Source: Escherichia coli (GTDB lineage Bacteria > Pseudomonadota > Gammaproteobacteria > Enterobacterales > Enterobacteriaceae). From it: a stretch of DNA of 64,000 nucleotides. The stretch lies in NCBI RefSeq assembly GCF_045037415.1, contig NZ_CP173438.1; one strand, written 5' to 3'. Position numbers: made by a program. Each line of letters begins with the position of its first letter. Positions within the stretch are counted from its first letter, which is position 1. Below are positions 51,401 to 54,400 of the stretch, piece after piece.

Positions 51401-54400
51401 CTCTACCCTGGTGGCGCGTTTGAAGAAAGAGAATATCGATTTCGTTTACTACGGCGGTTATCACCCGGAAATGGGGCAAATCCTGCGTCAGGCACGCGCG
51501 GCAGGGCTGAAAACTCAGTTTATGGGGCCAGAAGGCGTGGCTAACGTCTCGCTGTCTAACATTGCGGGCGAATCAGCGGAAGGGCTGCTGGTGACCAAGC
51601 CGAAGAACTACGATCAGGTTCCGGCGAACAAACCGATTGTTGACGCGATCAAAGCGAAAAAACAGGACCCAAGCGGCGCGTTCGTCTGGACCACCTACGC
51701 CGCGCTGCAATCTTTGCAAGCGGGGCTGAATCAGTCTGACGATCCGGCGGAGATCGCTAAATACCTGAAAGCGAACTCGGTTGATACGGTGATGGGGCCG
51801 CTTAGCTGGGATGAGAAAGGCGATCTGAAAGGCTTTGAGTTCGGTGTGTTTGACTGGCACGCCAACGGCACGGCGACTGATGCGAAGTAACAGATAGATA
51901 AATGAAAATACCCGATGCGCTGAACTGCCATCGGGTTTTTTTATATTTATCGAAATGGTTGTAGAAAGATTGAACAATTCAGGATATGCTTATGTACGGT
52001 GATATGCCGTACATATTATACGGAGCAGGAGAGTTCACATGTCTGCTGTTAAAAAGCAGCGTATTGATCTGCGTTTAACTGACGATGACAAAAGTATGAT
52101 TGAGGAAGCGGCAGCGATATCTAATCAGTCCGTCAGCCAATTTATGTTGAACAGCGCTTCGCAGCGAGCTGCGGAAGTGATTGAACAGCATCGGCGGATG
52201 ATTCTCACTGAGGAATCCTGGACGCGGGTGATGGATGCGCTGAGTAATCCACCGTCACCAGGTGAAAAGCTAAAACGTGCGGCAAAACGTCTTCAGGGAA
52301 TGTAATACTTTATGGATGATCTGACGATAGAGATTCTGACCGATGATGCAGATTATGATCTACAGCGATTCGACTGCGGCGAGGAAGCATTAAATCTCTT
52401 TCTGACGACACATCTGGTTCGTCAACATCGCAATAAAATTCTGCGAGCGTATATCCTGTGTCGCAACACTCCAGAACGTCAGGTGCTGGGATATTACACA
52501 TTATCCGGCAGTTGTTTTGAACGAGCCGCACTGCCCTCGAAATCGAAACAGAAAAAAATTCCCTACAAAAATATTCCCAGCGTAACTCTTGGGCGTCTGG
52601 CAATTGATCGTTCATTACAGGGGCAGGGATGGGGAGCAACACTGGTTGCTCATGCCATGAAAGTTGTCTGGTCAGCCTCTTTAGCGGTAGGTATTCACGG
52701 TCTTTTTGTCGAGGCGCTGAATGAAAAAGCCCATACGTTTTATCAGTCGCTGGGCTTTATCCCATTGGTCGGAGAAAACGAAAATGCGTTATTTTTCCCG
52801 ACCAAATCTATAGAGCTACTTTTTACACCAGACGATTAACGCTTCTCCCAGCCACCCTGTTGTGCCGTAAATCCCAGTGCTCGCATAAACGCCGTCATCA
52901 CGCCGCGATCTTCCACGCCAGCATCCGCCATCCACCAACATGAAACGCCAGGATTGTTACGCAAAACCTCTTCCAGCAGATATTGCCCCACACCGCGACG
53001 TCGGGTTACTTCCCGCACGCGTAGAGAATCCAGTGCCCCCTCGGTGCCGCTTAAGGTTACCCGCACGGCAGCGAGCAGGCGCTCGTTAAAACGCGCGGCG
53101 TAGATGCGGTGGTTATCGTCAACCTGTAAAGAGGAAGGGGAATACTCCGGCCAGATCTTTTGCAGGTCAATCCGGTCCTGGTCGCTAAAGTTTTCTAATC
53201 GAATGATGGTCAGCTTCATGGGGAACCCGTGTAAATCACAAAAGTGGAACCAGTGTAGCGAAATAATTTAATCGGAGGCTTTCTCTTTTTTATTTCTTTT
53301 GGCAGGTGATTAATTTTTTTTCAGCAATAATTACAAAGTTAAAACATTAGAGAATGAAAAATATCCAGCATAATCCCCTAAATGGTAGTGAATTATTCTG
53401 CCCTTTGTACCGTTATTTTATGCTGACAACGGCGCTTTTTTCTGTTTATCTATCAATAAATTCAGAATATTATCTGTTCTTAATCGACTGAAAAATAGGG
53501 ATTTTAATCGCTATCATCACAAAATACTGCGCTAAACCCTTAATCAGACAGGTAAAAACAGTGCAGTATAAAAAAGAACAGTCTGATTTGTTAACACATA
53601 AGAACAAAGCAACACAACATCACGAATGGGGATTTTTGACTATGAAACGGAATGCGAAAACTATCATCGCAGGGATGATTGCACTGGCAATTTCACACAC
53701 CGCTATGGCTGACGATATTAAAGTCGCCGTTGTCGGCGCGATGTCCGGCCCGATTGCCCAGTGGGGCGATATGGAATTTAACGGCGCGCGTCAGGCAATT
53801 AAAGACATTAATGCCAAAGGGGGAATTAAGGGCGATAAACTGGTTGGCGTGGAATATGACGACGCCTGCGACCCGAAACAAGCCGTTGCGGTCGCCAACA
53901 AAATCGTTAACGACGGCATTAAATACGTTATTGGGCACTTGTGTTCCTCCTCTACCCAACCTGCATCAGATATCTATGAAGACGAAGGTATTCTGATGAT
54001 CTCGCCGGGAGCGACCAATCCGGAGCTGACCCAACGCGGTTATCAATACATCATGCGTACTGCCGGGCTGGACTCTTCCCAGGGGCCAACGGCGGCAAAA
54101 TACATTCTTGAGACGGTGAAGCCCCAGCGCATCGCCATCATTCACGACAAACAACAGTATGGCGAAGGGCTGGCACGTTCGGTGCAGGACGGGCTGAAAG
54201 CGGCTAACGCCAACGTCGTCTTCTTCGACGGCATTACCGCTGGAGAGAAAGATTTCTCCGCGCTGATCGCCCGCCTGAAAAAAGAAAACATCGACTTCGT
54301 TTACTACGGCGGTTACTACCCGGAAATGGGGCAGATGCTGCGCCAGGCCCGTTCCGTTGGCCTGAAAACCCAGTTTATGGGGCCGGAAGGTGTCGGTAAT

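Follow-up and report, generated by a model that had tools for sequence, protein, structure and literature searches.

The 64,000-nucleotide stretch of Escherichia coli DNA analysed here (contig NZ_CP173438.1; 'the window' means this whole stretch) carries, between livJ and panM, the two-gene cassette ataRT. Judging from its sequence, we consider it very probable (roughly 93%) that it is a working allele of ataRT, a chromosomal type II toxin-antitoxin operon. By alignment, the pair is AtaR-AtaT itself and not a member of the TacAT, ItaRT or AtaRT2 subfamily. It consists of two co-oriented open reading frames (ORFs) on the + strand, of 88 and 175 amino acids (aa) and separated by a 6-bp gap (52306-52311; gene coordinates in Table 1), exactly as an earlier, sequence-only reading of the window had described them. 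That reading had also proposed a DUF1778 antitoxin paired with a GNAT acetyltransferase toxin of the AtaRT/TacAT/ItaRT class, and on this point the PDB, Pfam and RefSeq all agree.

The alignment by which the sequence-only reading had wished to place the toxin in a subfamily came out for AtaT. In a sequence search against all PDB chains, the 175-aa toxin matched AtaT of enterohaemorrhagic E. coli O157:H7 (6GTS_A) over its full length with 171/175 identical residues (97.7%; 381 bits, E = 5.9e-114), and the 88-aa antitoxin matched AtaR (6AJM_C; AtaR is also present in 6GTO/6GTS) with 86/88 (97.7%; 171.5 bits). The next-best relatives were the Klebsiella proteins KacT and KacA, at 254 and 132 bits. 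No other GNAT toxin chain scored above 78 bits, and 5FVJ, which we take to be Salmonella TacT, reached 47 bits. At 26 bits, 7BYY, which is ItaT (PMC7367177), lies lower still. Similarly, Pfam assigns the antitoxin to TacA1 (PF08681, E = 3.6e-26) and residues 92-150 of the toxin to GNAT families, and the RefSeq gene names for the pair are ataR and ataT. Scored against NCBIfam, AtaT and AtaR stay below the cut-off of every model; this neither supports nor contradicts membership, and the RefSeq names must stem from another rule. PADLOC gave no match to the pair, which is not among its anti-phage defence systems. An origin of the GNAT neighbour PanM as a duplicate of AtaT was considered and rejected, as the two proteins have no detectable similarity (E = 4.8).

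AtaRT has been known and named before, its mechanism has been described, and crystal structures have been solved for the toxin by itself and for complexes that contain the antitoxin, tRNA or operator DNA. The assignment has little discovery value, and its useful product is a clean placement of the toxin as AtaT, not ItaT or TacT.

The sequence-only reading had made its proposal depend on the catalytic GNAT residues, and these are present: AtaT of the window retains the catalytic Y144 and the acetyl-CoA-site G108 (roles as given in PMC7595197). Furthermore, every position in the list of tRNA acceptor-stem contacts and aminoacyl-pocket residues drawn from PMC7595197 (H34, R37, R40, N41, R71, S76-K82, Y85, R95, K165, A26, L27 and L136) is identical. 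From the O157 proteins to those of the window, the substitutions are C65S, K145Q, Q173P and S174D in AtaT, none of the four lying at a residue discussed in PMC7595197, and V54M and N57T in AtaR. In the last codons, where the window has ACACCAGACGAT and O157 has ACACAGAGCGAT, the Q173P/S174D change can be interpreted as a +1 and a -1 frameshift that compensate each other. Comparisons between lineages, here and below, cover five: the window strain, O157, E. albertii, E. whittamii and a cryptic-clade genome labelled 'E. coli' (L005). S65 and Q145 are shared with E. albertii, E. whittamii and the cryptic-clade genome and are the majority state, so that the O157 residues are the derived, unusual ones. 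Between lineages, the ratio of non-synonymous to synonymous divergence (dN/dS) ranges from 0.02 to 0.08 in ataT and from 0.05 to 0.19 in ataR, and values so far below 1 indicate purifying selection on both genes. Finally, the window allele recurs with 100% identical sequence in many independent isolates, and the window sequence holds no feature that argues against function.

The livJ-panM spacer across Escherichia

A comparison of the livJ-panM spacer across E. coli genomes, as the sequence-only reading had suggested, was informative. By megablast, the ataRT interval is present in 1,624 of 5,426 complete genomes (~30%), in each as one chromosomal copy over or beside panM, which RefSeq labels ataR/ataT. 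Alleles at least 99% identical to that of the window were found in 566 genomes and alleles at 95-99% in 1,054, the latter including the O157:H7 type allele at 96.3%; 12 of the 1,624 genomes have partial copies (<80% query coverage). In K-12, the spacer between livJ and panM (panZ) measures 187 bp from stop to stop (L001:2369-2555) and contains a dispersed repeat of the repetitive extragenic palindromic (REP) type, with a median of at least 40 matching places per genome. Of the 5,426 genomes, 3,751 (~69%) contain this K-12-type spacer with a coverage of at least 80%. Together, the two states account for ~99% of the collection; both ataRT and a full K-12-type spacer are lacking in about 50 genomes.

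The module had been described as inserted into a spacer that in K-12 holds just the livJ terminator and panM, and this description needs correcting. The window spacer, of 945 bp, cannot be aligned with that of K-12, similarity ending at the livJ stop codon on one side and ~5 nt past the panM stop on the other. The K-12 spacer has its REP-type repeat and lacks the hairpin that follows livJ in the window. An ataRT remnant was looked for in the K-12 spacer and none was found, since only GACGA and the shared stop codon align beside panM. On these alignments, the livJ-panM spacer exists as two alternative alleles, and the difference between them is a replacement of the whole spacer, not an insertion into the K-12 spacer. 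The same site is used beyond E. coli. When bacteria were scanned with one genome for each species, AtaT was found at 98-99% aa identity in E. albertii, E. whittamii and the cryptic-clade genome, and in 3/3 it lies between livJ and panM. The shared site across Escherichia lineages marks the cassette as an old, trans-specific resident and not a recent insertion in the window strain. A literature search on AtaT together with livJ returned irrelevant matches only, and no paper on the position of the locus was found.

A further, third arrangement was seen in isolate SC418 (NZ_LR778147.1, L008:1933-2700), whose livJ-panM spacer includes a BoxC-like, GC-rich repeat. Its antitoxin gene encodes a divergent DUF1778 protein of 94 aa, with ~76% nucleotide identity over the ataR region and a different upstream region, and its ataT is reduced to the last 65 codons (residues 1-109 are missing), so that the antitoxin is in effect orphaned, with a dead toxin next to it. 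SC418 and the partial copies show that the locus does decay and recombine.

The signal of foreign origin in the cassette is one of composition only: GC content at third codon positions (GC3) is 46% in ataR and 41.5% in ataT, against 60-63% in livJ, panM and livK. The absence of flanking mobility genes reported by the sequence-only reading was confirmed, as the annotation of the 64-kb window contains no integrase, transposase or tRNA gene. Furthermore, no flanking direct repeats beyond chance length were found at the cassette, which does not qualify as a mobile element or a genomic island. Overall, ataRT is an AT-rich, acquired-looking cassette that is shared across Escherichia without mobility genes.

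Divergence between species, compared over the five sequences, is lower in the cassette (3.0-4.2%) than in livJ plus panM (5.7-8.1%; Fisher p down to 1.6e-6), and synonymous divergence is 2-3 times lower (0.03-0.17 against 0.16-0.42 in the flanks). It is mainly ataR and the 5' half of ataT (52039-52575) that account for the effect: here species differ by 1.5-3.4%, whereas livJ (50787-51890), panM (52836-53219), the upstream spacer and the 3' half of ataT differ by 4-9.5%. When the window strain is compared with O157, the divergence of the cassette equals that of the flanks, at 3.8% each. The low divergence of the core may be due either to exchange across species after their split, by homologous recombination via the conserved flanks, or to constrained synonymous sites. 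Most likely, it is homologous recombination through these conserved flanks that both keeps the cassette in place and spreads it. This population pattern may interest those who study the persistence and movement of chromosomal toxin-antitoxin modules that lack mobility genes.

Activity and role of the module

By homology, AtaT of the window would acetylate aminoacyl-tRNAs, rendering the modified tRNAs unusable and so stopping translation, and the C-terminal domain of AtaR (residues ~44-88) would bind the toxin and hold it monomeric and inactive. In published work, AtaR blocks the dimerisation of AtaT, and regulation is set by the toxin:antitoxin ratio (PMC8138530, PMC10135005). The first in vitro study of AtaT gave initiator Met-tRNAfMet as the only target (PMC9177977); later work, in vivo and in vitro, found that Gly-, Trp-, Tyr- and Phe-tRNAs are also efficiently acetylated (PMC7595197, PMC9177977). 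A broad aminoacyl-tRNA specificity is accordingly ascribed to the enzyme, together with a block in elongation that is relieved by peptidyl-tRNA hydrolase (Pth) (PMC7595197, PMC9177977). Toxicity, neutralisation and aminoacyl-tRNA acetylation have been demonstrated for the O157 allele only (PMC7595197, PMC9177977). For the toxin of the window, homology leads us to expect several aminoacyl-tRNAs as targets, with a bias to Gly and to aromatic or hydrophobic residues.

A different question is why such a module is kept. It may be biochemically as described and yet be retained mainly as an anti-addiction or selfish element, AtaR serving to neutralise related plasmid-borne GNAT toxins and so allowing the cell to survive the loss of these plasmids, an explanation that we regard as possible, if rather unlikely. 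Chromosomal AtaR is reported to counteract a plasmid-encoded homologue, AtaTpl (PMC7167474, PMC7470980), and homologues of AtaT are indeed carried by enterobacterial plasmids: PLSDB holds no copy above 80% identity and 565 records at 60-80%, one of them from an E. coli plasmid with 69.6% identity across 98% of the protein. This would fit an anti-addiction role, and the presence/absence polymorphism (30% of genomes), the low GC3 and a divergence below that of the flanks would all fit a selfish element that is exchanged between genomes. However, anti-addiction needs the antitoxin only, whereas the toxin gene is under strong purifying selection (dN/dS 0.02-0.08), and the anti-addiction role has itself been called 'redundant' (PMC7470980). 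As this explanation concerns the biological role of the module, the tRNA-acetylation mechanism is not excluded by it.

We think it improbable that the activity of AtaT that matters to the host is instead protein lysine acetylation for virulence, that is, acetylation of EspB at K206 to stabilise this type III secretion protein, in place of tRNA poisoning. In enterohaemorrhagic E. coli (EHEC), deletion of ataT attenuates adhesion and colonisation, and AtaT acetylates EspB K206 (PMC7957018), but this is a single report and is confined to EHEC. The cassette is widespread in non-EHEC lineages from many sources, and occurs in E. whittamii and the cryptic clade as well, which speaks against this explanation. 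The conserved tRNA acceptor-stem contacts likewise point to tRNA, and not EspB, as the selected substrate, and the window itself shows nothing that would indicate EspB or the locus of enterocyte effacement (LEE) island in this strain.

The position of the cassette raises a further idea. That the stop codons of ataT and panM overlap in TTAA is common to O157, E. albertii, E. whittamii and the cryptic-clade genome (four species-level lineages), no terminator was detected between the two genes by scan, and the fold just downstream of ataT is not significant (z = -0.22). With overlapping convergent stops and no terminator, transcription of ataT and of panM should each run antisense into the other. 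PanM is, we assume, a GNAT-fold regulator that senses coenzyme A (CoA) and acts on pantothenate and CoA synthesis. It is conceivable, at long odds, that read-through antisense transcription couples the acetyl-CoA-dependent toxin AtaT to this regulator of CoA supply.

Upstream signals and gene neighbourhood

At 24 nt upstream of the ataR ATG lies the inverted repeat TATGTACGG-N7-CCGTACATA, the 9-bp arms of which are 100% complementary, as the sequence-only reading had stated. Its proposal that this repeat is the operator of the module is supported, the arms and their spacing being those of a DNA bound by the KacAT system, and is narrowed by the finding that conservation is limited to the inner 6 bp of each arm. 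The repeat alone is not unique, since perfect 9-bp inverted repeats with loops of 3-10 nt are common in the window (25 raw hits, at ~14 sites, in 64 kb against 3.0 expected from Markov-1 simulations). Taken together, its position, its conservation and its match to a crystallised operator argue that the palindrome at 51991-52015 is not there by chance. The 27-bp DNA crystallised with KacA4KacT2 (PDB 5ZGN) is AAATGTACGGTTATTAACCGTACATGA (PMC6698736), and the corresponding window sequence, TTATGTACGGTGATATGCCGTACATAT, is identical at 19/27 positions, with the same arms (ATGTACGG/CCGTACAT) and the same spacing. AtaR retains R8, D10 and R12, the positions at which KacA contacts bases (KacA contacts according to PMC6698736), and the AtaRT heterohexamer is known to bind a palindrome at its own operator (PMC6698736). 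Across the five lineages, the core GTACGG-N7-CCGTAC is invariant, and the outer three positions of the arms vary without compensation (TAT..ATA in the window, AAT..ATA in O157, ATC..ATA in E. whittamii). An invariant core with uncompensated outer changes is the pattern of protein half-sites, not of an RNA stem. Our analysis thus supports the prediction that the palindrome is the ataRT operator.

The same observations bear on the suggestion that the repeat is a hairpin in the 5' leader RNA, acting in stability or attenuation, or simply a chance palindrome, either of which we judge very improbable. As RNA, the repeat folds with -13.4 kcal/mol (z = -2.9), it would be part of the transcript if the start lay upstream of it, and the number of similar repeats in the window makes a chance origin conceivable. 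Set against this are the identity of arms and spacing with the KacA4KacT2 crystal DNA, the three retained contact residues of AtaR, the pattern of change just described and the lack of a U-run after the repeat.

If the palindrome is the operator, then by homology an AtaT-AtaR4-AtaT heterohexamer would bind it through the N-terminal ribbon-helix-helix domains of AtaR; as the palindrome would overlap the promoter and the transcription start, the operon would be repressed, and surplus toxin would lower operator affinity. For AtaRT as published, the AtaT-AtaR4-AtaT hexamer binds the operator tightly, and excess AtaT gives a complex of lower operator affinity (PMC8138530, PMC10135005, PMC6698736). 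The candidate -35 and -10 hexamers (Table 1) match at 8/12 positions, below the scan threshold, and both are invariant in the five lineages. This candidate promoter would place the transcription start within the left arm of the palindrome, as for kacAT (PMC6698736). Further upstream, the RNA of positions 51895-51945 folds with -21.5 kcal/mol (z = -6.8), and 0/200 shuffles fold as well. The hairpin behind livJ that lies in this segment is conserved in the five lineages as part of the ataRT-type spacer. It was not detected by a consensus terminator scan, probably because its 12-nt loop exceeds the 8-nt limit of the scan.

The chance that the cassette is a decaying, non-functional remnant seems negligible: degraded versions do occur at the site (the 12 genomes with partial copies and the ataT remnant of SC418), but both ORFs of the window are full length with the known functional residues intact, dN/dS is far below 1, and the identical sequence is found in many independent isolates.

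Some points nevertheless weigh against reading the cassette as a functional ataRT operon with the regulation proposed. The physiological tRNA targets of AtaT are disputed, the alternatives being the initiator only or several elongator tRNAs (PMC9177977). The operator match draws on the KacAT homologue plus conservation, and the promoter assignment is weak, as a scan for consensus sigma-70 promoters gave nothing at threshold near ataRT. Finally, six residues differ from the studied O157 allele, including K145Q, which adjoins the catalytic Y144; this difference is offset by the majority status of S65 and Q145 in the other Escherichia lineages.

Table 1. Features of the ataRT region, in window coordinates.
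Feature	Position	Strand	Remarks
livJ terminator-like hairpin	51902-51944	+	stem CCCGATG/CATCGGG, with A-run and U7 run flanking
Candidate sigma-70 promoter of ataRT	51962-51990	+	inferred; -35 TAGAAA 51962-51967, 17-bp spacer, -10 TATGCT 51985-51990
Predicted operator palindrome TATGTACGG-N7-CCGTACATA	51991-52015	.	arms 51991-51999 and 52007-52015
Conserved operator core GTACGG-N7-CCGTAC	51994-52012	.	five-lineage comparison
Shine-Dalgarno region of ataR, GGAGCAGGAGA	52022-52032	+	AGGAG ends 7 nt ahead of ATG; invariant in five lineages
ataR, 88-aa ribbon-helix-helix/DUF1778 (TacA1) antitoxin, predicted operator-binding repressor	52039-52305	+	
ataT, 175-aa GNAT acetyltransferase toxin, predicted N-acetylation of aminoacyl-tRNAs	52312-52839	+	
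TTAA, overlapping stop codons of convergent ataT (+) and panM (-)	52836-52839	.	

The cassette is flanked upstream by rpoH and livJ, and downstream by panM (converging), livK and livHMGF. An antisense ORF of 110 aa inside ataT (52310-52642, -) was treated as a mechanical ORF, without supporting evidence. Over its 64 kb, the window differs from strain SK1144 at 7 positions. Two Rfam matches above the gathering score were found elsewhere in the window: a shuA/chuA 5' untranslated region (UTR) thermoregulator at 1021-1052 (+), upstream of chuA, and the AgrB antisense RNA at 7201-7285 (-), adjoining the type I toxin gene dinQ. At ~5605-7026, the annotation of SK1144 shows arsC alone, beside a frameshifted partial pseudogene, with no arsR or arsB annotated between slp and arsC. 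K-12 presumably has arsRBC at this position, which would suggest a deletion. In the yhhJ-nikR interval, at ~25665-31265 (-), there is a seven-gene cluster for sugar utilisation, comprising a class II aldolase, an HPr-family protein, an FGGY kinase, galactitol-type phosphotransferase system (PTS) components IIC, IIB and IIA and a GntR regulator. We take K-12 to carry the rhsB region here, and the segment looks strain-variable.

Relation to known systems

The closest known system is AtaR-AtaT of O157:H7 (ECs4308-ECs4307 in Sakai, PMC7470980; PDB 6AJM, 6AJN, 6GTO-6GTS and 7CHD), which consists of the same genes at the same livJ-panM site. O157:H7 TW14359 has the arrangement of the window, livJ-ataR-ataT-panM, with proteins of 88 and 175 aa, the 6-bp gap and the 4-nt TTAA stop overlap. 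Catalytic and tRNA-binding residues and the operator core are identical in O157:H7 and the window, and the two differ by six amino acids, at 96.3% nucleotide identity. Their operators also differ outside the core: the perfect 9-bp arms with a 7-nt spacer in the window correspond to ATGTACGGT-N5-ACCGTACAT in O157.

KacA-KacT of Klebsiella pneumoniae (PDB 5XUN, 5ZGN) is a sister system, with the same T-A2-A2-T heterohexamer, operator half-sites and spacing; KacT and KacA are 67% and 73% identical to the O157 proteins (PMC6698736). KacAT differs in belonging to a lineage ~70% identical, in another species and another genomic context, and in the centre of its operator, which is the AT-rich TTATTAA against TGATATG in the window. 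Plasmid-borne AtaT-like toxins such as AtaTpl share the family and architecture, and are at best 60-80% identical, whereas AtaT proper is exclusively chromosomal (1,624 places, 0 on plasmids).

More distantly, TacA-TacT of Salmonella, ItaR-ItaT of E. coli HS and AtaR2-AtaT2 of O157:H7 belong to the same class, each consisting of a DUF1778/ribbon-helix-helix antitoxin and an aminoacyl-tRNA-acetylating GNAT toxin. The toxins of this class (TacT, ItaT and AtaT2) have in common the catalytic Tyr and the dependence on acetyl-CoA (PMC9177977, PMC7470980). AtaT2 is 29% identical to AtaT (PMC7470980), and in a published tree of GNAT toxins AtaT falls in clade A, ItaT in clade B and AtaT2 with TacT3 in clade D. 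The tRNA preferences differ as well, ItaT preferring Ile and Leu tRNAs and AtaT2 and TacT3 acting on those for Gly only (PMC9177977).

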